Program-made: the position numbers and the translations under genes
Source: Patescibacteria group bacterium UBA6805
Lineage (GTDB): Bacteria; Patescibacteriota; Minisyncoccia; Minisyncoccales; Minisyncoccaceae
NCBI GenBank assembly: GCA_002452735.1
Contig: DKFD01000006.1
Span: forward strand, 39,621-63,620
Direction: 5' to 3'
DNA length: 24,000 nucleotides
Part shown: positions 2-16,386 of the stretch, one piece after another
How the letters are laid out: each line of letters begins with the position of its first letter
Numbering within the stretch: the stretch's first letter is position 1
The notes under the pieces: generated by a model
Told to the model about the DNA's origin: nothing
The model's input: the letters and a program-made list of their open reading frames with translations, nothing else
Databases searched by the model: none

Positions 2-532
2 ACTTGTAATGCGGGATATGCCAGAAGCGGCAACTCTTGCGTTGCCTTGGGCGGAGGTGGCGGAGGCGGAGGCGGTACTCCTCAGGGAGATTTGACCGCT
101 CCTTCTGTCGCAGATATCACGGTTATCAAAACCAGCACCAGTGCCACTGTTAACTGGAAAACAACCGAAGCATCGTGGACTTGGTTTTTGTGGGGAGCCA
201 CTGCCAATTACGCTAATGAGGTTAAGACCGAAGCATATGTTTTAACTCATTCTGCCGTCTTGACCGACCTTACCCCCAATACCACTTACTATTTCCAGAT
301 CAAGACCAAAGACGCGGCTGGAAATACCCTCTACGGTTCGGCCTTGAGCTTTACGACATCGGCTCAGGGAAGCAATACGCCGGTGACGGAAACACCTTCG
401 CAAACAGGGGGACAGCAGACCACGCCGTTCACTTTAAGCAAGCCTTTGAGCCAGATGAGCAGGGCGGAACTGCTGAACACGCTTTTGAGGCTGATACTGC
501 AGCTTTTGCTTCAGGGCAAGCTTCACTTCTAA
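2..532 (+). CDS. Secreted/surface protein, C-terminal part (5' end outside window): Cys motif, Gly9 linker, fibronectin type III-like domain, conserved C-terminal tail
   Basis: Frame 2 is open from the window edge (TCNAGYARSGNSCVALGGGGGGGGG...), so the TTG at 47 in the ORF track is probably internal. FN3-like signature (SATVNWKT...LTDLTPNTTYYFQIKTKDAAGN...LSFTT). The stop at 530-532 is followed by a hairpin/T-run terminator. Confidence 0.7.
   Translation, partial: TCNAGYARSGNSCVALGGGGGGGGGTPQGDLTAPSVADITVIKTSTSATVNWKTTEASWTWFLWGATANYANEVKTEAYVLTHSAVLTDLTPNTTYYFQIKTKDAAGNTLYGSALSFTTSAQGSNTPVTETPSQTGGQQTTPFTLSKPLSQMSRAELLNTLLRLILQLLLQGKLHF
428..529 (+). other. Conserved C-terminal tail motif, copy 1 (FTLSKPLSQMSRAELLNTLLRLILQLLLQGKLHF)
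   Basis: Hand alignment to the last 34 aa of the 1291-2727 protein gives 24/34 identical residues. The SKPLSQM core is 20/21 identical at nucleotide level. The rest of the two proteins is unrelated. Confidence 0.8.
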
Positions 533-548
533 AGAGTTGATAATAAAA

Positions 549-576
549 GCACCGCTCTCGGGCGGTGTTTTTGCTT
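549..576 (+). terminator. Rho-independent terminator
   Basis: GC-rich hairpin CACCGC(550-555)/GCGGTG(562-567) followed by TTTTTGCTTTT, 17 nt after the stop codon. Confidence 0.8.
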
Positions 577-590
577 TTCATGTTTTGTTG

Positions 591-659
591 ATGGTTGACA
601 GTTGACAGTAAGCTGTCAACCATATGGATGTTGACAAGATAATCTAACAGATATACAAT
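591..659 (+). promoter_or_regulatory. Toxin-antitoxin promoter/operator region: perfect 11-bp inverted repeat plus four GTTGACA copies and TTGACA-N17-TACAAT
   Basis: ATGGTTGACAG (591-601) and CTGTCAACCAT (613-623) form a perfect inverted repeat. GTTGACA occurs at 594-600, 601-607 and 630-636, and inverted at 614-620. The -35 TTGACA is at 631-636, followed by a 17-nt spacer and the -10 TACAAT at 654-659. The ATG is at 685. Confidence 0.6.
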
Positions 660-684
660 GTATATATAATAAATATACAAAAAC

Positions 685-957
685 ATGGATGCAATCATTA
701 ATTTTAAAACCGAAAAAAAGATAAAAAGCGAGGCCAAAGAAATTGCTCAAAAAATGGGGCTTAATCTAAGCGATGTTTTAAATGTTTGTCTGAGAAACTT
801 TGTTCGCGATAAGGAGTTGAGCATTAATGTTGAGGAGCCGTCCGATTACATGCTTAAAGAGTTAATCGGGGCGGAAAAAGAGGTGAGCGGGGGAAAGGTT
901 TCTCCTGAATTTGATAGTGCAAAAAAAGCTGTTGGTTGGCTGAATAAAAAACAATGA
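685..957 (+). CDS. Type II antitoxin, RelB/DinJ family
   Basis: The N-terminus MDAIINFKTEKKIKSEAKEIAQKMGLNLSDVLNVCLRNFV matches the RelB/DinJ ribbon-helix-helix pattern (INxRxDxxLKxxAxxxxxxxGLxxSD). The protein is 90 aa. It overlaps the downstream toxin gene by 4 bp (ATGA). Confidence 0.8.
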   Translation: MDAIINFKTEKKIKSEAKEIAQKMGLNLSDVLNVCLRNFVRDKELSINVEEPSDYMLKELIGAEKEVSGGKVSPEFDSAKKAVGWLNKKQ

Positions 958-1217
958 AAATTGTTTTTGCCAAAAGGTTTCAAAAACAATACCAGTCTGC
1001 TTCGGAACAGATTAAAAGCGATTTTAGCGGCAGATTGGGCGTTTTTATGAAAGACAAGCATGCCGTTGTCCTTAATAATCACTCCCTGAAAGGAAAATTA
1101 AAAGGATACAGAAGCATTAATGTGACCGGAGATTGGCGCGCTATTTTCAGGGAATCAAAAGACAGAAACTGTACAATATTTGTTTTATTGGGCAAGCACG
1201 GCGATTTATATAGATAA
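954..1217 (+). CDS. Type II toxin, YafQ/RelE-family mRNA interferase
   Basis: 87 aa. HSLKGKLKGYRSINVTGDWRAIF...LLGKHGDLY fits the YafQ/RelE pattern (HxLxGxxxGxxxxxxxxDWRxIF ... GxHxDLY). It is translationally coupled to the upstream antitoxin. Confidence 0.8.
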   Translation: MKIVFAKRFQKQYQSASEQIKSDFSGRLGVFMKDKHAVVLNNHSLKGKLKGYRSINVTGDWRAIFRESKDRNCTIFVLLGKHGDLYR

Positions 1218-1245
1218 TAGAAGCAGAAGCTTGATGTCTCGGCAT

Positions 1246-1278
1246 TTGATTTGCCTTTTTTTTATTCTATGATAGAAT
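1246..1278 (+). promoter_or_regulatory. Putative promoter with overlapping palindrome
   Basis: TTGATT (1246-1251), 16-nt spacer, TATGAT (1268-1273). The -10 lies inside a 7-1-7 palindrome ATTCTATgATAGAAT (1264-1278). The ATG is at 1291. Confidence 0.4.
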
Positions 1279-1290
1279 AAAAAGACAAAA

Positions 1291-2727
1291 ATGAGAAAAC
1301 GTATATATTTTTTAATATTTTTCTTTTGCCTGTTTCCCTTGTTTTGGGCCGAAGCAGATACATTGAGCCAGAAGACGGATTTTATCGTTGAGTCCAGTTA
1401 TTCTATTTCCGGGGAGAACAAAGTTTCGGCAACCCTGAAGAAAGTTTCCAACAGGCTCTATTTCTATTTTGAAGACAAGTGGTGGAGCAATCTGAACCAG
1501 CAAGAGGTTGATAAAATCGAGCAGATTTTAATTGATTTGGGAAACGAGTTTGATTCGGTGATTTATCCCAAGGCAACATCCCTCTACGGTTCGGAATGGA
1601 TTCCGGGAGTAGACAAGGACAGCAAAATCACCCTTCTTTTCTATCCCATGAAAGAAAACATGAGGGGGTATTTCAGGAATATTGACGGATATGAAAAGAT
1701 TGTCGCTCCCATGTCCAATCAGAGGGAAATGATTTATCTTAACGCTGAAAACATCCACAGTGCTTTTCTCAAAGAGTTTTTGGCCCACGAATTCGTCCAT
1801 TTGATTATTTTCAACCAAAAGGAAAGGCAACATGGCGCAACCGAAGACATCTGGCTCAACGAAGCAAGGGCCGAGTACATGATAACCTATCTGGGGTACA
1901 ACCAGAAAGAGAACAGCTATTTAAAGAGCCGAATAAGGGATTTTCTGGACAGGTCGAGCGATTCTTTGACCCAGTGGGACAGCGAGGCTTACGACTACGG
2001 GATAATCAACATGTTCGTCCACTATCTGGTTGACCAGTACGGGGCTGAAGTTTTGTCAGAGTCGTTAAGAACGAGCAAGACGGGCGTGGAAAGCATTAAT
2101 TACGCACTCAGCCAGCTGGGCAAGTCAAAAACCTTTGCCGACATATTCAGCGACTGGGCCATTGCTTCTTATCTGAATGACTGCTCTTTTTCCCAGAAGT
2201 ATTGCTACAAAGACGGCAATCTGGACAAGGTCCAGCTGGTTCCTTTCAATAATTTCCTGCCTTTGTCCGGAGAGAGTTCTCTTTCCGTTGGTCAGTCCTT
2301 GTCGGCTTGGTCTGCCCACTGGCAAAAATTCAGCGGAGCCAGAAGCGATGTAAAGATTGATTTTGACGGAAGAAACCAGAACAATCTCCGCGTTTTCTAC
2401 ATCATCAAGGACTTCGCGGGCAATTACGAGGTGAAAGAAATGGCTTTAGGCGCCGACAAAAAGGGGACAGTGACGGTTCTCGGCATGGGCAAGGATAAAT
2501 CCTCAATTGTTTTGGTTCCGGTTTCCCTGAGCTCTTCATCCAGCCTCTTTTATTCCATAACCGCCACCACCTTTGCCCAGCCAATTGAAAATCAGGGCCC
2601 TGGAAGCGAAATACAGCTGCCTTTCGAGATTAGCAAGCCATTGAGCCAGATGAACCGGGAAGAGCTCCTGGGCGTGCTTTTACGCCTTATAATCTACCTT
2701 TTATTGCAGGGGAAGCTGGTGCTGTAG
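1291..2727 (+). CDS. Secreted zinc metallopeptidase, gluzincin (clan MA(E)-like), with conserved C-terminal tail
   Basis: Signal-peptide-like N-terminus MRKRIYFLIFFFCLFPLFWAEA. HEFVH at 1786-1800 is followed 20 residues later by WLNE (1852-1863), resembling the M1-type HExxH...WLNE third-ligand arrangement. The C-terminal 34 aa are shared with the upstream FN3 protein. Confidence 0.7.
   Translation: MRKRIYFLIFFFCLFPLFWAEADTLSQKTDFIVESSYSISGENKVSATLKKVSNRLYFYFEDKWWSNLNQQEVDKIEQILIDLGNEFDSVIYPKATSLYGSEWIPGVDKDSKITLLFYPMKENMRGYFRNIDGYEKIVAPMSNQREMIYLNAENIHSAFLKEFLAHEFVHLIIFNQKERQHGATEDIWLNEARAEYMITYLGYNQKENSYLKSRIRDFLDRSSDSLTQWDSEAYDYGIINMFVHYLVDQYGAEVLSESLRTSKTGVESINYALSQLGKSKTFADIFSDWAIASYLNDCSFSQKYCYKDGNLDKVQLVPFNNFLPLSGESSLSVGQSLSAWSAHWQKFSGARSDVKIDFDGRNQNNLRVFYIIKDFAGNYEVKEMALGADKKGTVTVLGMGKDKSSIVLVPVSLSSSSSLFYSITATTFAQPIENQGPGSEIQLPFEISKPLSQMNREELLGVLLRLIIYLLLQGKLVL
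2623..2724 (+). other. Conserved C-terminal tail motif, copy 2 (FEISKPLSQMNREELLGVLLRLIIYLLLQGKLVL)
   Basis: See copy 1. It is preceded by a low-complexity linker (QPIENQGPGSEIQLP), as in copy 1 (TPSQTGGQQTTP). Confidence 0.8.
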
Positions 2728-2746: not shown

Positions 2747-2775
2747 TTGACTGCCGGGGATTAATTGGATATAAT
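2747..2775 (+). promoter_or_regulatory. Consensus sigma70-type promoter of the fic gene
   Basis: TTGACT (2747-2752), 17-nt spacer, TATAAT (2770-2775). This places the TTG at 2775 inside the -10 element, so the ATG at 2790 is the likelier start. Confidence 0.6.
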
Positions 2776-2781
2776 TGGATA
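2762..2781 (+). repeat. Perfect tandem 10-bp repeat TAATTGGATA x2 overlapping the -10 element and predicted transcription start
   Basis: TAATTGGATA occurs at 2762-2771 and 2772-2781, read directly from the sequence. Confidence 0.7.
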
Positions 2782-2789
2782 TAGTTAAT

Positions 2790-3866
2790 ATGTCCAATAA
2801 TTTTATGATGAAAAATATACGCTTTGACCAAAGATTAAAAAACATTCCAGCAGAAATCTGGTCAAAAGTAGCAAAAATCGATGAACTTAACGGGCAATGG
2901 ATTGCTGGCGCTAAACTGGGCCCGCAGATTTTAAGCCGTCTCAAGCGGTCTGTGTTGATTACCTCTGCCGGTGCTTCGACTCGCATCGAAGGTGCTCGGC
3001 TTTCCGACGAAGATATTGAAAAATTAATGCGTGGTATTGATATTCAAAAATTCGCCGGTCGCGACAAACAAGAAGTAAAAAGTTACATCGAATTACTTGA
3101 AAACGTTTTTAATTCTTGGAGGTCTCTTAAGTTTGGAGAGAACACGATTAAACATTTTCACGGTGAATTGCTGAAATATGTAAAAAAAGACGAGTTTCAT
3201 AGAGGCGAATACAAAAAAAACGAGAACAAGGTAGAAATGATTGACGCAGTAGGCAGGTCTGTTGGCGTTCTTTTCGACACTACGCCAGCATATCTTACTC
3301 CCAAGGAAATGCAGGAGTTGGTTGAGTGGGCCCGAGAATCTCTCGCCGAGAAAAAATATCACCCCCTTCTTATCGTGGGCAATTTTCTTATCGAGTTTTT
3401 GCAGATACATCCGTTTCAAGACGGCAATGGCAGGCTTTCTCGCGTTCTCACCAACCTTCTTTTGTTAAAAGAGGGGTATCTGTACGTACCCTATGTTTCC
3501 CATGAGAAATTAATTGAGGACAATAAGCCGGATTATTACATGGCTTTAAGAAAAAGCCAGAAGACCTTTAAAACGGACCATGAAGATATCACGCCCTGGC
3601 TGGATTTCTTTTTGGCTATTTTTTTGAAACAATCGAAGATGGCGGTTGAATTACTTTCGAAAGAGAGCGTTGAAAAGCTTCTTTCCGTTAAACAGCTTGC
3701 TGTCTGGGAGTGTTTGGAGAAAGCAGACGAAACAACTACCGGTGAAATAGTCCGAAAAATGAGAGTTGCGCGGCCGACAGTTAAGCAAGCGCTTGATAAA
3801 CTTCTGCGTCTTAAAAAAATCGAGCGTATCGGCTTGGGGAGAAGCGCGAGGTATAGAAAAATATAA
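2790..3866 (+). CDS. Fic family protein (class II, N-terminal inhibitory helix) with C-terminal winged-helix DNA-binding domain
   Basis: Fic motif HPFQDGNGRLSR at 3408-3443. Auto-inhibitory motif STRIEG ([ST]xxxE[GN]) at 2976-2993, upstream in the same polypeptide. The C-terminus TGEIVRKMRVARPTVKQALDKLLRLKKIERIG is wHTH-like. An alternative TTG start lies at 2775. Confidence 0.85.
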   Translation: MSNNFMMKNIRFDQRLKNIPAEIWSKVAKIDELNGQWIAGAKLGPQILSRLKRSVLITSAGASTRIEGARLSDEDIEKLMRGIDIQKFAGRDKQEVKSYIELLENVFNSWRSLKFGENTIKHFHGELLKYVKKDEFHRGEYKKNENKVEMIDAVGRSVGVLFDTTPAYLTPKEMQELVEWARESLAEKKYHPLLIVGNFLIEFLQIHPFQDGNGRLSRVLTNLLLLKEGYLYVPYVSHEKLIEDNKPDYYMALRKSQKTFKTDHEDITPWLDFFLAIFLKQSKMAVELLSKESVEKLLSVKQLAVWECLEKADETTTGEIVRKMRVARPTVKQALDKLLRLKKIERIGLGRSARYRKI

Positions 3867-4098: not shown

Positions 4099-4710
4099 AT
4101 GAATAAAAAGTTAAAGATATTTTTGGCGGTGATTTTAGTAATCATACTGGCATCTTTCTTAATTTTTAAGGTTGTTGAGTACAAAAACGAAAAAGCAGAT
4201 GAGTTAAACTACCTGTACATTGAAGATTTTACCAAAACAGAAATTGACGGTAAAACAATCTTAGAGAACAAGGACATTGGTCTTAAATTTACCGTGCCCC
4301 AGGGGTGGGAAGCCGGTTCTGCATATTGGGCGAATGTTTCTCTGGTTAGCCCTGATTTTGAGCCGTTAAGAAATGACCCGACGGCATCGCCTTGGCCACA
4401 AAAGGGGTGTTGGATAGACCTCGTTTTTTCTATAAATTATGCCCATGCGATTGACTACGAATTCATAAACAATTTGATAAACTTAAAAGGTTATTTGGAA
4501 AGCTATAACGAAGAAGGCAACCGTTATGAAATTATTGAGGTTGATGGTCTGAAGGCAGTTAAGGATAAGGATGAAGGAGACTATATGTCTGTTCGAATTC
4601 CCTTTAAGAGAAATGGAATATATTCTTTTGAGACTTATTTAATGGGCGAAAACAAAGAGGGGTGCCTTGACGAATTTAACGCTTTTCTTAATTCAGTTTA
4701 TATAAAATAA
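4099..4710 (+). CDS. Membrane-anchored extracytoplasmic protein, unknown function
   Basis: N-terminal anchor MNKKLKIFLAVILVIILASFLIF followed by a soluble domain. The LKFTVPQGWE-type strand is reminiscent of PsbP/Mog1-like folds, but this is weak. Its stop is 1 nt before the start of the giant gene, so co-transcription is likely. Confidence 0.6.
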   Translation: MNKKLKIFLAVILVIILASFLIFKVVEYKNEKADELNYLYIEDFTKTEIDGKTILENKDIGLKFTVPQGWEAGSAYWANVSLVSPDFEPLRNDPTASPWPQKGCWIDLVFSINYAHAIDYEFINNLINLKGYLESYNEEGNRYEIIEVDGLKAVKDKDEGDYMSVRIPFKRNGIYSFETYLMGENKEGCLDEFNAFLNSVYIK

Positions 4711-4711
4711 A

Positions 4712-7700
4712 ATGAAAATTAAAAATTTTCTCTTTAGTGCGGTATTAGCTTCATCGCTAATCTGCTTTTTGACGATACCTTCTAAGGTTTCGGCAATAGA
4801 ATTTAATCTTTTTGGATTTTCAGAAAAAACACCGCAGACTTTTTCTGAATTTGAGGCAAAGAATATATTGAAAAAATTTGATGGAATATTATTTAAAAAA
4901 TGGAGAGACCTCGAAGCTGACGCTTATAGTGACCCGAAAGAAAAAACCACGATAATATTTCTTAGAACGGCTCTTCGGTACAATGTTTGGAACTATATTT
5001 TTCAGGACCTTCCCATAGAAGTATCAATAAAAGTTGCAAAAGCAGTTGCAGAGATTGCCCGAATAGTAACATCTAACGACGTAATGAGTCTGGTGATAGA
5101 AAAACTGGAAAAAGAAACAGTCCGGCGTTCCGTGGAATATGCGATGGAACAGCTTTTTAAGAGCGATGTTAAAATTGCTTTCGGAGCCACGAAGGTAAAT
5201 TATGACACGGGCAAGGTAAAAGTTGATTCCAACTTGCAATATATAATGGTTTACACTCCCATTGACAAAGAGAAGGGGAATATCGTTGTAAGAATATATT
5301 CTCCTTATGAATTAGAGCCGCCAATAAGCCATGGTTCAATTGGATTAAGTATCGGCGTGGTGAACGACCTTCCCGAAGGGGAAAAGATTCCTCCTTTCGT
5401 GGTTGAATTTAGGGGAATTATTGGTAAGAAGTATTTTCCTTGGGATTATTGCTGGTACGGAGACCCTTCAATCGCCGTATATTTCCCCGACAACGTTCCC
5501 GACTTTGGATTTAGGCCCATCTCTAAATGGGATAAATATGTCGTTAATCCCATAAAAGAAGCGATTGAGAGTGTGACCGGGTTTTTCGGAAAACTGTTTC
5601 CCAAGGGAGAGGTGGTGGAATATTTTCCTTATGAAGAGCAAAGTGAAGAAGTTAAACAAGAGGTACAGGAAATGTCAAATAACGTAAACAATTACGTAGA
5701 GAATAAAAAAGAAGAAACACAGGAGGAAAACAAGAAAGAGATTAAAGAAACATCTGTTCCCAAAGTACAGCCTCCCGAAACACAGAAAGAAAGAAGGGAG
5801 TGTATTTTAAGCAATAGCAACCCCAAAAGAAGCTCGGTTTTGATTAATGAGGTCGCCTGGATGGGAAGCAAGAATAGCGCTAATGATGAATGGGTAGAGT
5901 TAAAGAATATCGGTAGCACGGGGGTAAACATCAAAGGCTGGAGCTTTTATGATAAAGATAAGCAGATAAATGTCTTTTTTGAACAAGATTATATTGTTCC
6001 CGCTGGCGGACTTGTGTTGCTGGAAAGAACGGATGACACTTCGGTTCCTTACGTGAAAGCTGATTTCATATATTCCGGGGCGATTTCCAACAAAGATGAA
6101 TCTCTTTATTTGTTTGACGCCCAGTGCGTACTTCAGGATTTTGTAGAAGCCAATTCTCAGTGGCCGGCCGGAAAGAGCGAAGAAAGGCGCACCATGGAAA
6201 GAGGGAGTGATTTAAGCTGGCATAGTTATAGTGGCAGCGGATATGCGGATATGTTTGGAACGCCGAAACAGGAAAATAGTCCTAAAAAAATAGAAGACGA
6301 GGGGAGTATCGAAACGGAACAGACCGAAGAAGAAAGCTCTAATAGTAACAGCAATAGCAACAGCAACAACTCGGGCGGTTTCGGCGGAGACATTGTGGCT
6401 TACTGTTCGCAAAGCAATTTAAGCAATCCAATCTTGTCGCCGATAGTAATTAACGAAGTCGCCTGGATGGGAACACAATTCAGCTCTAGTGACGAGTGGA
6501 TAGAATTGAAGAATGTTTCAGGAACAGATGTTAATTTGAATAACTGGCAGCTTTTGGATAAAGATAATCAAATCAGGGTTATTTTCGACACAAGCGACAT
6601 TGTCCCCGCCAACGGATTTTATCTTTTAGAAAGAACAGACGATACGTCGGTTCCCAATGTGCCGTTTAATAAGAAATATTCGGGAGCTTTGTCTGATACC
6701 AATGAATCTTTAAGACTTTTTAATTCAAGTTGCGAGTTGGTTGACGAGGTTAAGGCCGAAGAAAATTGGCCAGCCGGAGACAAAGAGAACAAAAAGACAA
6801 TGGAAAGGAATAGCAGCTTAAACGGCTGGCACACCTATTCTTTGTTAACGCCCGATGAAATTAGCGGTCTTTTCGGGACTCCGAAGAGGGAAAATAGCGA
6901 ATTAGCAGAAAGCGACCAGCGGCAAGAAGATGAGGAAAAAAACGATAATGTGCAAGAACAAATAGCGTTTGGTCTCGTTGTGTCCGAAATAGAATTAGGG
7001 GATGAAAATGGCTATGAATATGTAGAGATATTTAACCAGTCAGAAGAAGTAATTAATTTGTGTCAGGATGAAAATAATTGTTATTATCTTTCGTATTTTG
7101 CCAATACTTTTGACGACGAAGGAAAGCCGAGGCATGATTGGGACAATCCATACCGCAATTGGCCCCTTCAGGGGCTAATAATCAACCCCAATTCTTATCT
7201 TTTAATCGGAGACAAAGAGATTACTTCTCACGAGATTGTTTCTTTTCAATTGAGCAATTCCTCGGGTTCTTTGGCTCTATTTTCCAATAATCCCGTTTAT
7301 GCCGGGGAAGAAGAAAAGACCCAGGAAGAAAAGATTGTTTATGCGCAAGCTTTTAAAGTTGACGCTGTTGCTTGGAAGGATAAAGCCAATGACTTCGAGC
7401 CGACAGTAAGGGAGGGACAATCTTTTATTCTAACCGGAGAAGGAGTTTTGGGCAGGAAATATATAGAAGGTAAATACATAGACAGTGATAATAATTTTAA
7501 TGATTTTGAAATGCAAGAAAAGAGCCCTGAAAATAATCCTTCTTATCCTCCCGAAGCGATAAGCGACCTGAGTGTTCGGGGGGCAGGGAATAGGAGAAAC
7601 TCGGTTGTTTTGTCTTGGACGTTGCCATTCGACCTGGACACAAACAAAGACAGCCTTGATTATGAAGTTTATTATTCCTTAAATCAGGAAATTGACGTAA

Positions 7701-9088
7701 ACAACTTAATCGGAATTGACAGTTATATTGATGTTGAGATTGAGAAAAAAGATGAGGGCGTTTCTGTTTTAATTCCCGATCTTTACTACGGTTCTAATTA
7801 TTTTTTTGCCACGAAGACCAAAGATTCGGAAGGGAATTATTCTTTTCTTTCCAATATAGTTAATTATTCCATCTCTCCCGCTCAACACATAAAAGCATCG
7901 CCCTACCTTGATTACGGCAGAAGGAATAAGAGTTCATTTATTGGTCCTAGTAACGAAAACATTGTAGAAACCACGGTTTTAATAAAGGGCGAAGACGATA
8001 AAGACTGGAACGACGGATTTTCTTCTCCCTTAATAGATGAGAATGGAGATATATATTTTTCGGGAATATTAGATGATAATAAGGGCATTTTCGTTTTTAA
8101 TGATAGTGTTAAAAAGTGGTTTTATGAATGTCCTTCGGGGTGCAATAGGCTTTTCCTGAACAGCGACGGGACCCTTTATGCTTTTGACGGCCCGGTTCTT
8201 ATTGCTTTAAGCCCTTCCGGAAAATTAAAATGGCAGGAAGATTTATCGCAAGCTTATGTTTCTGAGATAGTGATTGATTCAGGCAAGCGACTTTATCTTC
8301 TTGGTTCTTCTGGCGGAACACCTTCGCTTTTCGTCTTAAGGGATAATCAAAATACGGTTGGTATAACAACTTTTGGCTTGGGAGGTAATTATGACCATTT
8401 TTCAAACCTGGTTTTAGACGAGCAAAATAATGTTTATTTTCTTGCAGATACCACGCTTTTTAAATTTACTGCTGGAGGAAAAACAGGGGAGCGAGTCCCT
8501 GAGATTGTTTACGACGAAGGTTACGAGGGCGATAAAGATAAATCAGGGCACGTTACTGATTTGGCATTATCTTCACAAGGAATGCTTTTGTTTAATATAT
8601 TTGATGGCGGATACGATAAAGACGGCAGGGCTTATAATATTTTCTATGCCTTGAATAAAGACGACATATCATCCGAACCCTTGTGGACGAAAAAAGATTT
8701 TTATTCGGGCCCGATAGGAATTAATGGAGAAGAATTTTTCATGCAGGCGAACCCACCCGGTTCTTACGGTTGGTATCATTTATATCTTTACGGTATTGAT
8801 GTTTTGACCGGAGAAACAAAATGGGCCAAACATTGGCAGTCAAACGGATCTCCGCCGTTAAGCGTTTCGGCAATAACTTCTGACAGCAATAATAATATTT
8901 ATTTCACTCAAGGCGGAGAGGTTTGGTCTTACAGTCTGGATAATATTTTAGACGAGATTCCACAAAACGACAGGATATTTTCTGCCCTAGGCGCAAATTC
9001 CAACATTTCCGAGCCGGTTGCCATGGGCCAAGGAGTGATGTATGTTTTAGGGGGAAAGACGATAAGTAGGGTAGTTTTTAATCCGTAA
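4712..9088 (+). CDS. Giant secreted multidomain surface protein (1458 aa): novel N-terminal domain, 2 clear plus 1 degenerate lamin-tail domains, FN3, C-terminal beta-propeller (PQQ/BamB-like) repeats
   Basis: Signal peptide ...LTIPSKVSA. LTD signatures INEVAWMG..DEW(V/I)ELKN occur twice (5837-6280 and 6443-6898), and a degenerate third copy VSEIELGDENGYEYVEIFN starts at about 6970. FN3-like segment at about 7547-7876 (SVVLSWTLP...YEVYYS...YFFATKTKDSEGN). Blade-like motifs recur from about 7960 to 9085 (DENGDIYFSG, NSDGTLYAF, DEQNNVYFLAD, DSNNNIYFTQ, QGVMYVLGG). Confidence 0.8.
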   Translation: MKIKNFLFSAVLASSLICFLTIPSKVSAIEFNLFGFSEKTPQTFSEFEAKNILKKFDGILFKKWRDLEADAYSDPKEKTTIIFLRTALRYNVWNYIFQDLPIEVSIKVAKAVAEIARIVTSNDVMSLVIEKLEKETVRRSVEYAMEQLFKSDVKIAFGATKVNYDTGKVKVDSNLQYIMVYTPIDKEKGNIVVRIYSPYELEPPISHGSIGLSIGVVNDLPEGEKIPPFVVEFRGIIGKKYFPWDYCWYGDPSIAVYFPDNVPDFGFRPISKWDKYVVNPIKEAIESVTGFFGKLFPKGEVVEYFPYEEQSEEVKQEVQEMSNNVNNYVENKKEETQEENKKEIKETSVPKVQPPETQKERRECILSNSNPKRSSVLINEVAWMGSKNSANDEWVELKNIGSTGVNIKGWSFYDKDKQINVFFEQDYIVPAGGLVLLERTDDTSVPYVKADFIYSGAISNKDESLYLFDAQCVLQDFVEANSQWPAGKSEERRTMERGSDLSWHSYSGSGYADMFGTPKQENSPKKIEDEGSIETEQTEEESSNSNSNSNSNNSGGFGGDIVAYCSQSNLSNPILSPIVINEVAWMGTQFSSSDEWIELKNVSGTDVNLNNWQLLDKDNQIRVIFDTSDIVPANGFYLLERTDDTSVPNVPFNKKYSGALSDTNESLRLFNSSCELVDEVKAEENWPAGDKENKKTMERNSSLNGWHTYSLLTPDEISGLFGTPKRENSELAESDQRQEDEEKNDNVQEQIAFGLVVSEIELGDENGYEYVEIFNQSEEVINLCQDENNCYYLSYFANTFDDEGKPRHDWDNPYRNWPLQGLIINPNSYLLIGDKEITSHEIVSFQLSNSSGSLALFSNNPVYAGEEEKTQEEKIVYAQAFKVDAVAWKDKANDFEPTVREGQSFILTGEGVLGRKYIEGKYIDSDNNFNDFEMQEKSPENNPSYPPEAISDLSVRGAGNRRNSVVLSWTLPFDLDTNKDSLDYEVYYSLNQEIDVNNLIGIDSYIDVEIEKKDEGVSVLIPDLYYGSNYFFATKTKDSEGNYSFLSNIVNYSISPAQHIKASPYLDYGRRNKSSFIGPSNENIVETTVLIKGEDDKDWNDGFSSPLIDENGDIYFSGILDDNKGIFVFNDSVKKWFYECPSGCNRLFLNSDGTLYAFDGPVLIALSPSGKLKWQEDLSQAYVSEIVIDSGKRLYLLGSSGGTPSLFVLRDNQNTVGITTFGLGGNYDHFSNLVLDEQNNVYFLADTTLFKFTAGGKTGERVPEIVYDEGYEGDKDKSGHVTDLALSSQGMLLFNIFDGGYDKDGRAYNIFYALNKDDISSEPLWTKKDFYSGPIGINGEEFFMQANPPGSYGWYHLYLYGIDVLTGETKWAKHWQSNGSPPLSVSAITSDSNNNIYFTQGGEVWSYSLDNILDEIPQNDRIFSALGANSNISEPVAMGQGVMYVLGGKTISRVVFNP
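5837..6898 (+). repeat. Intragenic tandem duplication of a ~150-aa lamin-tail-domain module (period ~606 nt)
   Basis: Hand alignment of the two units gives roughly 55-60% amino-acid identity, including the identical block LLERTDDTSVP and both ending in FGTPK(Q/R)ENS. Confidence 0.8.
6341..6370 (+). repeat. In-frame hexanucleotide microsatellite encoding (Asn-Ser)n in the inter-LTD linker
   Basis: AAT AGT AAC AGC AAT AGC AAC AGC AAC AAC, encoding NSNSNSNSNN. Confidence 0.7.
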
Positions 9089-13365: not shown

Positions 13366-14700
13366 ATGGCTGAGGAAATCGGTATCCAAACATTAAAAAT
13401 CATAAATGATGTCTCGGGGATTCTTCTTCCTTATATTTTGTTCCTCAAAAATATTATCGTTCAATTTTGGTGGGTCCCTCTGCCGTTTTTACTTTACAAG
13501 TATTTCCGGTTCGCTTTTGTCCTTTTCATGGAAACCTGGTGGAATAAAACCATTAAAAGGGTCGTTTTGGAGGTCAAGGTTCCCCAGCACGTGGCCAGGC
13601 CCCTGAAAGCCATGGAAAATTTCTTTTCCGCCATCTGGCCCCTATACGACCCTCCCAAGGACTGGCGAACAACTTTTTTTGAAGGAAAAACCATGCTTAG
13701 CGCCTCTTTTGAAATCGCGGGAATAGACGGCGAACCGCATTTTTTTATCAGGATTCCCGCGACAGCCAGAAAAATGGTTGAATCGTCTCTTTATGCCCAA
13801 TATTCGGAAATAGAGATTTTCGAGGTTCCTGACTATACCAAAAGCGTGCCCCAAGGACTGCCCAATAAGGATTGGGAAATGTGGGGCTGTGATTTCATGC
13901 CCATTAAAACGGACGTCTATCCTCTAAAGACCTATCCCGAGTTTTTTGAAGAGAATCCTGAGGCAAAAGAGGAAAAAAGAATAGACCCCTTGTCTTCTCT
14001 TTTGGAAACAATCTCCACCATGAAAAAAGGTGAGCAGATTTGGATTCAGGTGGTGGCTTCGCCCGTCAGCGTCGTTGAAGACAATTATGTTAAAAGGGGA
14101 AAAGATATAGTCGACAAGCTTTTGAAAAGAATCAAAGACAAGGCGAACTACGAGCCGTATCCCATGTTTCTGGAAGCTTTGCGCATTTTGGTTTTTGGCG
14201 AGCCGTTTAAGGAAAAAGAATCAAAGGGCGAAGAAGAGTTTCCATGGGAAATGCGCTTGAGCCCCGGGGAAAGAGATATTATTGCCGGCATTGAAAGAAA
14301 GATATCCAAAGTTTGCTATACCTGCCTTGTAAGATACATTTATCTGGCCAAAAGGAGTGTTTTTTTCGGCGGAGCCAAAGCTTACGGACCCAGTTTTTTC
14401 ACTCAGTTTTCCACCCAGAACCTAAACGGGGTAAAACCTTGGGGCAAAACCATTACCAAAATCCAGGCCCCGGACATTTTTACCAAAAGAAGACTTTACG
14501 TCAAGAAAAGGAATTTGTTTGAAAATTACGTCAACCGAAGGCCCTCCTTTGACCCTTTTCCCGGCGGAACCTTCCTGATGGGCATTGACGAGCTGGCGAC
14601 CATTTATCACTTCCCGGGCATTGAAGTCGCTCCCACCCAGGCCCTGAAGAGAATCCAGACCAAGAGGGGAGCGCCTCCGGCAACCTTGCCCGTTGAATAA
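13366..14700 (+). CDS. Membrane-anchored protein of unknown function (partner of the downstream ATPase)
   Basis: 444 aa. Hydrophobic N-terminal segments (ILLPYILFLKNIIVQFWWVPLPFLLY, FAFVLFMETWW) precede a ~370-aa domain with no motif I can name. The C-terminus carries a GIDELATIYHFPG motif. The gaps to the flanking genes are 9 nt and 6 nt. Confidence 0.7.
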   Translation: MAEEIGIQTLKIINDVSGILLPYILFLKNIIVQFWWVPLPFLLYKYFRFAFVLFMETWWNKTIKRVVLEVKVPQHVARPLKAMENFFSAIWPLYDPPKDWRTTFFEGKTMLSASFEIAGIDGEPHFFIRIPATARKMVESSLYAQYSEIEIFEVPDYTKSVPQGLPNKDWEMWGCDFMPIKTDVYPLKTYPEFFEENPEAKEEKRIDPLSSLLETISTMKKGEQIWIQVVASPVSVVEDNYVKRGKDIVDKLLKRIKDKANYEPYPMFLEALRILVFGEPFKEKESKGEEEFPWEMRLSPGERDIIAGIERKISKVCYTCLVRYIYLAKRSVFFGGAKAYGPSFFTQFSTQNLNGVKPWGKTITKIQAPDIFTKRRLYVKKRNLFENYVNRRPSFDPFPGGTFLMGIDELATIYHFPGIEVAPTQALKRIQTKRGAPPATLPVE

Positions 14701-14706
14701 TAATTT

Positions 14707-16386
14707 ATGAAAGAGAAAGAAAAGATAACATTTTTTGGCAAGACCACTTTTCGGGGAGAGAAAAAGAGGTTTGGCATAAAAGACGACGACAAGAGGCGTC
14801 ACGTTTATATCATCGGTAAAACCGGCATGGGAAAAACCGAACTCTTGAAAAACATGGTGGTGCAGGATATCCGCAATGGCCACGGCGTCGGTTTTGTCGA
14901 CCCTCACGGGGAAGCGGCCGAAGAAATTCTCGGCTTTATTCCCAAGGAAAGAATCAAAGATGTCGTCTATTTCAATCCGGCTGATATCGAGAGCCCTATT
15001 GCCTTTAATATAATGGAAGATGTCAGCGCCGATTACCGCCACTTGATTGCCGGCGGATTGATGGGAGTTTTCAAGAAAATATGGCCCGATGTCTGGTCCT
15101 CCAGAATGGAATATATTCTTAATAATTCCATTTTGGCTCTTTTAGAAATTCCCGGTTCGACTCTTTTGGGAATCAACCGCCTTTTGTCCGATGCGGAATG
15201 GAGAGAGGAAATAGTAGTTCGGCTGAAAGACCCGATAGTCAAGGCGTTTTGGCTGAAGGAATTCGCCAGATACACCCAGAGGTATGAGGTGGAAGCAACA
15301 GCCGCCATTCAAAACAAAATCGGCCAGTTTATTTCCGCGCCCTTGATTAGAAACATTATCGGCCAGGAAAAATCAAGCATTGACATGAGGAAGATAATGG
15401 ACGAGGGCAAGATTCTGATAATGAACCTGTCAAAGGGGAAAATCGGAGAAGATAATTCCCGGCTCTTGGGAGCTCTTTTGATTACCAAGCTTCAATTGGC
15501 CGCCATGTCCCGGGTTGATATTCCGGAAAAAGAAAGAAAGGATTTTGTTCTTTACATTGATGAATTCCAGAATTTTTCCACCGATTCTTTCGCCAATATT
15601 TTATCCGAAGCGAGAAAGTACCGCTTGTCTTTGGTTTTGGCCCATCAATACATCGCCCAGATGGAAGAAAAAGTCAGGGATGCTGTTTTCGGCAACATCG
15701 GAACAATGATGCTTTTCAGGGTGGGAGCCGACGACGCGGAATTCATAGAGAGAGAATTTTCTCCCGAATTTTTTGTTGAAGACATGGTCAATCTTCCCAA
15801 GCAGAATATTTATGTCAAGCTGATGATTAGCGGATTGACTTCCCGGCCTTTTTCAGCCGAGACCCTTCCTCCGATAGAAATACCCGAAGAAACCCACGAA
15901 AAAGAAATAACGGAATTTTCCAGAAAAACTTACGGCACGTCCAAAACTGGCGTTGAGAAAAAAATAGCCGCGGAGTCGGGAGTGGATTCGATAATTCCTT
16001 TCAAAAAGAGTAATAGCGCGGAGCTTTATGACGCTGTTTGCCAAAAATGCGGCAAAAGCTTTAAAGCGCCTTTTAAGCCGGACGGCAAGAGGCCGGTCTA
16101 TTGCAAAACCTGCCTTAAGAAAAACGAAGAAGGGCCGAATAATGCTTTCAATTCGTTGCCCTCGATTTCCCTTAAAGAATCGGCCAGGGAATTCACTCCG
16201 CTGGCCAAAAAGAGCCGGCTAAAAGAAGAGGTGGTTATAAGGGGCGAGAACGTCAGAGACGTCAACAAATCGTCCAAAAAAGAAATAGACCTGGAGGGAC
16301 TGAAAGAAATAATCAAGAAAGCCAAGAAAGAAAAAAAGGAGGAGAGGGGGTTGATTAATCCAGGAGAGAAAATAAAATTCGAGTAG
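14707..16386 (+). CDS. Soluble P-loop ATPase of the TraD/TraG/VirD4 coupling-protein / HerA-FtsK type, with C-terminal CxxC-x17-CxxC zinc ribbon and Lys/Glu-rich tail
   Basis: Walker A GKTGMGKT (14815-14838). Walker B VLYIDE (15547-15564). The ARKYRLSLVLAHQYIAQM and GNIGTMMLFRVG blocks are typical of T4SS coupling and DUF87-type ATPases. No TM helix is present. The zinc ribbon CQKCGKSFKAPFKPDGKRPVYCKTC is at 16039-16113. Confidence 0.8.
   Translation: MKEKEKITFFGKTTFRGEKKRFGIKDDDKRRHVYIIGKTGMGKTELLKNMVVQDIRNGHGVGFVDPHGEAAEEILGFIPKERIKDVVYFNPADIESPIAFNIMEDVSADYRHLIAGGLMGVFKKIWPDVWSSRMEYILNNSILALLEIPGSTLLGINRLLSDAEWREEIVVRLKDPIVKAFWLKEFARYTQRYEVEATAAIQNKIGQFISAPLIRNIIGQEKSSIDMRKIMDEGKILIMNLSKGKIGEDNSRLLGALLITKLQLAAMSRVDIPEKERKDFVLYIDEFQNFSTDSFANILSEARKYRLSLVLAHQYIAQMEEKVRDAVFGNIGTMMLFRVGADDAEFIEREFSPEFFVEDMVNLPKQNIYVKLMISGLTSRPFSAETLPPIEIPEETHEKEITEFSRKTYGTSKTGVEKKIAAESGVDSIIPFKKSNSAELYDAVCQKCGKSFKAPFKPDGKRPVYCKTCLKKNEEGPNNAFNSLPSISLKESAREFTPLAKKSRLKEEVVIRGENVRDVNKSSKKEIDLEGLKEIIKKAKKEKKEERGLINPGEKIKFE

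Follow-up and report, generated by a model that had tools for sequence, protein, structure and literature searches.

A KPLxQM-helix tail shared by exported proteins of Paceibacteria, read as a candidate retention or assembly module

Why do two exported proteins with unrelated bodies end in closely similar C-terminal tails? The question is raised by a 24,000-nt stretch of DNA (DKFD01000006.1, positions 39,621-63,620, assembly GCA_002452735.1, Patescibacteria group bacterium UBA6805), referred to here as the window. Patescibacteria, or candidate phyla radiation (CPR) bacteria, are ultra-small episymbionts whose contact with the host depends on surface proteins; to our knowledge, hardly anything has been learned of the way in which such proteins stay on the cell, and most of them are annotated as 'hypothetical'. 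In the window, an FN3-domain protein ends in FTLSKPLSQMSRAELLNTLLRLILQLLLQGKLHF (428-529, stop codon 530-532) and a metallopeptidase in FEISKPLSQMNREELLGVLLRLIIYLLLQGKLVL (2623-2724, stop codon 2725-2727). A first-pass annotation, made from the sequence alone, had pointed to these two C-termini and to 24 identical residues among the last 34, and translation and counting reproduced both. In a BLASTP comparison of both whole products, the C-terminal ends formed the sole aligned segment (26 of 39 residues identical, E 2e-7), and at the nucleotide level the tails are identical at a fraction of 0.70 over 90 nt starting at SKPL, including 20 of 21 positions in the SKPLSQM core, in agreement with the likeness reported before. 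The upstream parts are unrelated, as had also been claimed: according to Pfam, the body is of the fn3/Pur_ac_phosph_N type in the first carrier and an HExxH peptidase in the second. The resemblance of the two tails is far beyond chance. The reading that we favor, and on which we put about half of our confidence, is that the tail is a linker-tethered retention or assembly helix module of Sec-exported Paceibacteria proteins, the apolar surface of which would be buried in a helical assembly.

The first carrier gene is represented in the window by its 3′ part (2-532, + strand, 176 codons plus stop, from translation and Pfam), the 5′ end being cut by the window start. It is complete on a longer identical contig (L003:8517-9242, 241 aa), on which the full protein starts with the Sec signal peptide MTKQMKKILLFSLILSFAFFSNVLA. 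An FN3/purple-acid-phosphatase-N-like beta-sandwich at 101-340 (+), corresponding to residues 34-113 of the 176-aa fragment, passes both Pfam cut-offs (fn3 with 29.0 bits, cut-off 25; Pur_ac_phosph_N with 30.6 bits, cut-off 30). It is followed by a low-complexity Ser/Thr/Gly/Gln linker read off the translation (TSAQGSNTPVTETPSQTGGQQT, 356-421, +) and by the first tail copy (422-529, +) at the extreme C-terminus, which consists of the TPFTLSKPLSQM motif at 422-457 and the apparently N-capped hydrophobic helix SRAELLNTLLRLILQLLLQGKLHF at 458-529 and is matched by a hidden Markov model (HMM) of the tail with E 1e-19. A run of nine Gly codons (GGGGGGGGG, 47-76, +) lies between a Cys-rich segment and the FN3 domain of this protein, and the poly-Gly spacer is kept in the FN3-family homologues L001, P0133 and P0143.

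The second carrier is a secreted 478-aa M30-like HExxH zinc metallopeptidase (1291-2727, +), assigned from homologues, an AlphaFold2 (AF2) model and Foldseek. A Sec-type signal peptide (MRKRIYFLIFFFCLFPLFWAEA, 1291-1356, +; heuristic, with three K/R in the n-region and a 12-aa Kyte-Doolittle mean of 2.80) precedes a catalytic part with the HEFVH zinc-binding motif (1786-1800, +, located by homologue alignment), in which H166, E167 and H170 are invariant in 61 homologues. Then follow a C-terminal all-beta sandwich (residues ~319-428; 2245-2574, +; AF2 secondary structure and Foldseek, with matches of the PPC, collagen-binding and CPE C-terminal type) and a poorly conserved, disordered linker (2575-2616, +; identity 0.31 over residues 421-442). 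The second tail copy (2617-2724, +) comprises the LPFEISKPLSQM motif and the helix NREELLGVLLRLIIYLLLQGKLVL, modeled by AF2 as a helix over residues 456-472 with a predicted local distance difference test (pLDDT) score of 76-87. The AF2 model has an overall pLDDT of 90.4 and contains the M30-like catalytic domain, the beta-sandwich, a disordered stretch at residues 432-440 (pLDDT <50) and the terminal helix. Its top Foldseek matches are lugdulysin structures (7bb8/7bb9, M30; E 1.5e-15, template modeling (TM) score 0.66 on the target). PF10460 is present in some homologues, and the Pfam sequence match of the window peptidase itself is below the cut-off. With its HExxH zinc site and an M30 fold, the modeled body is that of a predicted member of the hyicolysin/lugdulysin family. 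The low-complexity linker that had been described ahead of each tail is thus found in both carriers.

The tail turned out to be the best-preserved part of the peptidase. Among 57 aligned peptidases, the mean pairwise identity is 0.68 in the tail, 0.50 in the body and 0.31 in the preceding linker; the tail is the most conserved 36-residue window of the family, the best body window (around HExxH) reaching 0.65, and judged from these alignments it is at least as constrained as the active site. The identical peptidase sequence occurs on 17 public contigs (including DIJX01000016.1 of GCA_002421465.1), and a search with the whole peptidase yielded 607 homologues. Those that carry a name belong to Candidatus Paceibacterota, Pacebacteria or Minisyncoccales, and of the 120 best among the 607, nearly all end in LPFx[IV][DS]KPLxQM[NS][RK]EELLxVLL[RK][LV]IIYLxxQGKLxx. 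Residues identical between the two tails share the same codon ~50% of the time in the seven genomes compared (11 of 22 in the window), and the same-codon rate is no higher within genomes than between them. Peptidase tails from different genomes are closer to each other than to the tail of the neighboring gene, and both tails are conserved in the orthologues of many genomes, where they group by orthology. Codon use and orthology grouping therefore indicate that the likeness is old and has been kept at the protein level, with purifying selection acting on the tail sequence beyond hydrophobicity alone.

The module is not restricted to these two proteins. A tail profile of 36 positions, run with HMMER against 1.84 billion cluster-representative proteins, gave 23 matches at E<=1e-3, of which 21 are real and two are repeat artefacts; in all 21, the tail is followed by no more than 0-5 residues. 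JGI metagenomes, scanned with a sequence pattern, contributed another 57 loci. When all loci were pooled and the parts upstream of the tail were clustered, at least seven unrelated carrier families emerged. They stem without exception from CPR bacteria of the Paceibacteria type and comprise the M30-like peptidase, the FN3 family, a small beta-domain family (P0132/P0135, larger proteins included), Big_5-like repeat proteins, the L019/L022/L025 family, P0134 and an I42-inhibitor/Laminin_G group; two of the seven are families with a beta domain of unknown type. The consensus of the module is (L)PFx[IV][DS]KPLxQM[NST][RK]xEL followed by a Leu/Ile-rich helix, located almost always 0-9 residues from the end of the carrier. 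All carriers with a complete N-terminus (~60) have a Sec-type signal peptide according to a heuristic that combines a basic n-region with a strongly hydrophobic h-region. The idea of a modular element on several unrelated families across the lineage, limited to signal-peptide proteins, was hence confirmed (at least seven bodies; ~60 of ~60 complete carriers), and on the two points that the first-pass annotation had singled out, the tail is neither confined to the two ends in the window nor carried by cytoplasmic proteins.

Pfam and NCBIfam, queried at E<=10 with both whole proteins and both 44-aa ends, returned no match on the tail, PDB sequences searched with the tail profile produced nothing beyond chance matches (E>0.3), and literature searches on CPR sorting signals and anchors and on DUF5667 found no account of a KPLxQM tail motif. 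The tail is thus an undescribed module with respect to Pfam, NCBIfam, PDB and the literature found. Long contigs of 110-656 kb carry one tail locus each with 1-2 tails, a lower bound given the narrow scan pattern, and no additional cryptic copies were detected when ~800 kb from related loci were scanned by regex and HMM. A word-index search with a two-sequence tail profile yielded a single 60-aa fragment, the index being insensitive to a short tail on long proteins, and one genome-contig scan found two loci only, its automatically chosen patterns being narrow and of little bearing on the distribution. No viral protein with the tail was found in a scan of IMG/VR. The carrier P0134 (271 aa, L015:3534-4349) is located in phage- or mobile-element-like surroundings, among numerous small ORFs and genes for an HTH protein and an SLT/transglycosylase giant.

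The tail begins with KPLxQM and a polar cap, [NST][RK]EE, ahead of the hydrophobic run. Following general helix-capping rules, M-[NST]-[RK]-E-E-L reads as a helix N-cap with a capping box and a hydrophobic staple. The helix itself is 15-24 residues long and Leu/Ile-rich and varies only at positions 461, 471/472 and 476-478. Polar or variable residues (E458, x461, R/K465, Y469, x472, x476) line up on one narrow stripe, the rest forming a conserved Leu/Ile/Val surface; in the window tails, Leu and Ile recur at an a/d-like spacing, yet most other positions are apolar too. Between EE and QGK the apolar run measures 14 residues and has a conserved Arg/Lys at its center, a position occupied by Met or Asn in several FN3-family tails, and the hydrophobic runs of P0071, P0089, P0099, L012, L013 and L072 have only 12-16 residues. 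The tails end in QGKLVL, QGKLHF, QGKLTF, QGKTIF or QGKLTHL, i.e., in a lone Lys followed by 2-5 neutral or apolar residues; as noted earlier, there is no terminal basic cluster.

Informative variants were found at the equivalent position of homologous proteins. In more distant orthologous peptidases, the tail columns read EKPIxEMT[KR]EELIAKIAEITELLNQLKAQLA, so that the motif is kept and the helix that bears it is charged and amphipathic. In P0106, P0116 and P0120, the motif-helix is followed by a PG_binding_1 domain (Pfam 27.7, 23.7 and 22.9 bits at a cut-off of 23, P0120 being just under it), and P0119 and P0121 have a 45-aa classical coiled coil at the tail columns. By eye, a heptad a/d pattern with polar b, c, e, f and g positions can be seen in the homologous helices of P0106, P0116, P0119 and P0121. 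In the FN3 family, the protein of the window has the tail only; its relatives in L053, L056, L057 and L059 have the motif-helix (…KPLSQMSREELISTILKLIIYLQQKKEQ…) plus ~112 aa, an extension that looks PG_binding_1-like by eye and in which Pfam finds no such domain. PG_binding_1 directly precedes a short tail in a 270-aa protein of L012, a 1415-aa protein of L013 and an 893-aa protein of L065, and L071 has an internal motif-helix, after which the protein continues for 552 residues. Tail-only versions are systematically more hydrophobic than versions with PG_binding_1. Compared across these architectures, the module is not obligatorily terminal, occurs in extracytoplasmic settings and swaps with or adjoins a wall-binding domain. 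A helix cannot span the membrane if the domain behind it binds the wall outside the cytoplasm, and the PG_binding_1 interchange together with the internal copies therefore argues against a cleaved sorting signal and an obligatory membrane span and for a role in holding proteins at the envelope.

The tail is modular, restricted to exported proteins, extremely conserved, interchangeable with or adjacent to PG_binding_1 and embedded in a conserved neighborhood. From this we infer helix bundling and envelope retention, and the homologues are best read as using a 'motif-helix + PG_binding_1' wall-anchoring cassette, of which the tail would be the stand-alone version. After export of the protein and removal of its signal peptide, the body would float on the linker while the tail helix buries its conserved hydrophobic surface in a helical assembly, the partner being further copies of itself, the tail of a neighbor-encoded protein or another envelope partner. 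Peptidase and partner would thus be kept at the cell envelope by a non-covalent retention or assembly handle that is not cleaved by a sorting enzyme. We lean towards a helical assembly because the tail is conserved like an interaction surface, because its homologues include plain coiled coils and because in several loci a second tail is encoded in the adjacent gene. The gene directly upstream of the peptidase bears the tail or a short variant of it in nine of 49 peptidase loci, which fits co-assembly; such upstream tails occur in the window genome (L003/L016) and in L001/L070, L009/L020, L011/L043, L021 and L012, and a weaker variant (HMM E 0.003) is encoded upstream in L013. In the window, a RelB antitoxin (PF04221, 685-957, +) and a YafQ/RelE-type toxin (PF15738, 954-1217, +), which overlap by 4 bp, are inserted exactly between the two tail genes; L001 and L070 are without this pair, and their tail genes are adjacent.

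Among known systems, the tail would best be compared with non-covalent surface-retention devices, that is, with terminal anchoring or assembly helices. PG_binding_1 (PF01471) modules take the same place in the same families, stand directly beside the motif-helix in five architectures and presumably serve the same purpose of keeping an exported protein at the wall; unlike them, the tail is a single ~24-residue helix without the PG_binding_1 fold and with no sign of a murein-binding site. The low-molecular-weight penicillin-binding proteins PBP5 and PBP6 of E. coli are exported enzymes that stay attached to the outside of the cytoplasmic membrane through a short, uncleaved C-terminal amphipathic helix, which has a broad basic polar face and a poorly conserved sequence. 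The tail peptidase resembles them as an exported enzyme with a short terminal helix and differs in that the apolar arc covers most of the helix, that the tail is the best-conserved part of the protein and that it has soluble coiled-coil homologues. Non-covalent display is also known from the dockerin-cohesin type, and terminal coiled coils serve as oligomerization or docking handles of surface proteins. Like these, the tail is a small linker-tethered terminal module with sequence-specific conservation on unrelated, co-encoded enzymes, and its place is taken by simple heptad coiled coils in the homologues P0119 and P0121; in contrast to these handles, it is far more hydrophobic than soluble coiled coils.

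The neighborhood of the tail genes is itself conserved. Over 49 peptidase loci, the most frequent neighbors encode a giant signal-peptide protein (28 loci), a ~100-aa membrane protein (28), a DUF5667 protein (13), a Fic protein (11) and an extracytoplasmic function (ECF) sigma factor (9). The giant protein (1270-1440 aa) begins in its mature form with a conserved Cys-bracketed helix (ACSLxxLSECDNxGLMALVxQLL), after which come a Thr/Gly/Gln linker and PG_binding_1, and its gene lies upstream of the peptidase after those of the ECF sigma factor and DUF5667 (L009:3150-7304, L012:3131-7078, L014:5563-9516, L036:4556-8431 and 24 others). This giant peptidoglycan (PG)-binding protein is possibly a major surface protein. 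In Paceibacteria that parasitize archaea, signal-peptide proteins with PG-binding domains are reported to be among the most highly expressed secreted proteins, and one of these adjoins a DUF5667 gene (PMC10936435). This is consistent with the present cluster encoding abundant surface components, the link to that work being limited to the PG-binding domain-DUF5667 adjacency.

The ~100-aa membrane protein, which we call holin-like, is found within the available sequence in ~28 of the 39 peptidase loci that have >=700 bp downstream, its gene often starting 4-200 bp past the peptidase stop. In the window genome, the gene (L003:2886-3194) is outside the window, upstream of both tail genes at a distance of ~5.3 kb from the FN3 gene and ~7 kb from the peptidase gene; others are located at L009:11418-11717, L011:3012-3311 and L014:9653-9955. 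The protein contains …AGFGGGxVRG…GYAGGDFLDG…, three AF2-predicted helices and, inside them, the invariant residues R19 and D86, and its family comprises 913 clusters, all Paceibacteria-type and 60-90% identical. It weakly resembles phage holins of superfamily III (LydA-like): the match to Pfam PF16083 has E 2e-3 and 17-19 bits at a cut-off of 28.4, with several family members having precomputed PF16083 hits, PHROGs holin families match with E 2e-3, and the best BFVD folds are mostly phage holins (TM scores 0.54-0.73 in the top ten, Foldseek E 0.025-0.1). Tail proteins without a peptidase neighbor have no holin-like gene nearby. At L026:7669-12391 and L032:2716-6220, we noticed 2-4 near-identical holin-like copies, each flanking an inserted gene for an AAA_14/DUF4143 ATPase, an NYN/LabA-like or an AlbA_2-HATPase protein, which looks like an integration hot spot with target-gene duplication; in the window genome, an AAA_14 gene (L003:1701-2834) lies directly upstream of the single holin-like copy.

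Several of these observations weigh against a helical assembly. The peptidase-type tail is hydrophobic enough for a marginal membrane helix (Eisenberg mean 0.72 over residues 459-472; Kyte-Doolittle values within the range of real transmembrane segments from the same genome), the greater hydrophobicity of tail-only forms is expected if the helix took over anchoring by entering the membrane, and the commonest neighbor, the holin-like protein with three transmembrane helices, has conserved Asp and Arg residues inside the membrane and would be equally fitting for a partner there. Moreover, the tail has no detectable homology to the N-terminal Cys-bracketed helix of the giant protein (hhalign probability 7.5%); common descent of these two helices, considered as a candidate relationship, is not supported. 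The main rival reading, possible if on the whole unlikely, is that the tail is a membrane anchor, its helix either spanning the cytoplasmic membrane as a stop-transfer segment with the C-terminus inside and QGK at the inner interface, or lying in the outer leaflet, perhaps with an Arg/Lys-Asp pairing to the holin-like protein. The peptidase would then be a membrane-tethered ectoenzyme.

Hydropathy cuts both ways here. The peptidase tail has a 19-aa Kyte-Doolittle mean of 1.98 (1.98-2.07 over 19-20 residues), inside the range of 1.69-3.03 of the transmembrane-like segments of SecD, SecF and MurJ in the window, and its polar residues, including R/K465, Y469 and K475, are gathered in the single narrow stripe. 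The FN3 tail reaches only 1.13, below the usual threshold of 1.6, and the summed Hessa values of the best 19-aa windows are positive for both tails (+3.0 for the peptidase, +8.1 for the FN3 protein); for comparison, 25 transmembrane-like segments of the same window (SecD, SecF, MurJ and others) have medians of 2.24 (Kyte-Doolittle) and +1.1 (Hessa). The stand-alone membrane propensity is thus borderline for the peptidase tail and under the Kyte-Doolittle threshold for the FN3 tail. A span would further have to accommodate an uninterrupted apolar stretch of just 14 residues with Arg/Lys in the middle, a cytoplasmic end with no basic residue besides one Lys, and homologous helices that precede an extracytoplasmic PG_binding_1 domain or extend over 12-16 residues, and the tail is conserved much above what is usual for lipid-facing anchors. 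The frequent position of the holin-like gene shortly downstream of the peptidase and the invariance of R19 and D86 favor a membrane anchor; the replacement of the mid-helix basic residue by Met or Asn in several FN3-family tails and the lack of a holin-like gene near tail proteins without a peptidase neighbor speak against it. The fallback offered by the first-pass annotation, an amphipathic anchor or an oligomerization helix, fits the evidence better than its sorting signal.

A bolder version of the retention reading, which we regard as rather improbable, would have the tail act as an address tag in a new mode of surface display in Paceibacteria that works without a sortase, its receptor being the holin-like protein (through the Arg/Lys-Asp pair) or the PG-bound giant protein of the ECF-sigma-controlled cluster. 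If so, these episymbionts could equip their surface in plug-in fashion, adding a protease along with adhesin-like partners, and release might be triggered by the holin-like protein. A specific docking tag would constitute a new non-covalent display principle and a pull-down handle for uncultured organisms; if the tail were a mere hydrophobic anchor, the practical gain would be better annotation. The tail signature marks a set of exported, probably surface-held proteins, connects the M30-like protease, in a physical or functional sense, with the variable adhesin-like partners of adjacent genes, and defines a conserved cluster of ECF sigma factor, DUF5667 protein, giant PG-binding protein, tail protein, tail peptidase and holin-like protein.

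The first-pass annotation had drawn an analogy with the tripartite sorting signals of LPXTG/sortase, PEP-CTERM/exosortase, PGF-CTERM/archaeosortase and GlyGly-CTERM/rhombosortase. On such a reading of the tail, a dedicated enzyme would recognize KPLxQM, cleave, and attach the protein covalently to the wall or a lipid. There is an outward similarity: in these systems as here, signal-peptide proteins with unrelated bodies in a single lineage end in a short conserved motif and a hydrophobic helix, which in nearly all tail carriers lie 0-9 residues from the C-terminal end. The analogy is nevertheless not supported. As the annotation had stated, the motif is outside the known sorting-signal models (no NCBIfam match even at E<=10). 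Unlike those signals, the tail has a charged cap between motif and helix, an Arg/Lys in the middle of a sometimes very short helix, no basic end, and homologous copies that are internal or flank PG_binding_1 (of the L053 and P0106 types and in L071, with its 552 residues after the helix). Five features of sortase-type signals were compared, and four of them are absent from the tail: a curated model, a motif with an uninterrupted apolar helix of 17-22 residues, a basic cluster and an obligatory terminal position. The fifth concerns substrates per genome and the enzyme: the contigs of 110-656 kb have a single tail locus of 1-2 genes each (the lower bound given above), and within 10 kb of the tail in ~60 loci there is no sortase-, exosortase- or rhombosortase-like gene and no recurrent neighbor family that is a polytopic enzyme. 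Furthermore, the commonest carrier is itself a soluble peptidase. We therefore consider a true C-terminal sorting signal very unlikely.

Scarcely probable, too, is a release switch similar to that of signal-anchor-release (SAR) endolysins, in which the tail, as a C-terminal anchor, would keep the peptidase inactive at the membrane until the holin-like protein depolarizes or permeabilizes it and so releases the peptidase. SAR endolysin/pinholin pairs consist of a muramidase-type enzyme with an N-terminal, Gly/Ala-rich signal anchor and a small membrane protein. The likeness lies in a secreted hydrolase with a marginally hydrophobic helix, as in SAR domains, that forms a conserved gene pair with a small membrane protein resembling holins in the PF16083, PHROGs and BFVD comparisons described above. 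However, every one of these holin matches is under the curated or significance thresholds, and the holin-like gene is chromosomal, of a single-copy type and 60-90% identical, unlike fast-evolving holins. The tail differs from SAR domains in being C-terminal and Leu/Ile-rich, the enzyme is M30-like, and we know of no M30 peptidase acting as a murein hydrolase; moreover, the tail is shared by carriers that are not peptidases, the FN3 protein among them. Finally, a functionless likeness produced by chance, or by recent local recombination or gene conversion between neighboring gene ends, is suggested by the 760 bp between the two genes and the near-identical SKPLSQM core and has a negligible probability, given the grouping of both tails by orthology in many genomes, a codon identity in the window not above the between-genome level, which rules out gene conversion or recent duplication of the two ends, and the presence of the tail on at least seven protein families; the local recombination artefact that the first-pass annotation had named as a refutation is thereby excluded.

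The window contains further genes. Directly downstream of the peptidase, a Fic/DOC protein with a C-terminal winged-helix (MarR/DIP2311-like) is encoded at 2775-3866 (+), and a Fic gene is found here in 11 related loci. The gene at 4712-9088 (+) encodes a 1458-aa signal-peptide protein with three Lamin-tail domains (PF00932, E 7e-28) and acidic low-complexity spacers, the C-terminal repeat region of which has a sub-threshold PQQ_2/BamB-type match only; profile and HMM scans found no tail on this protein, as had been reported. It is directly preceded by a gene for a 203-aa N-terminally anchored protein (4099-4710, +), and the pair is conserved in L014 and L016. A PBECR3-domain protein (PF18812, 9315-9770, -) is encoded between the surface-protein block and secDF; in the window's first half, no other gene of notable size lies on the minus strand. 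Further downstream, the gene for a 444-aa membrane-associated protein (13366-14700, +) precedes one for an ATPase that resembles TrwB/TraG (type IV coupling protein-like) and has a zinc-ribbon at its C-terminus (14707-16386, +), a pair that is conserved in L014 beside a sigma-like gene and pgk.

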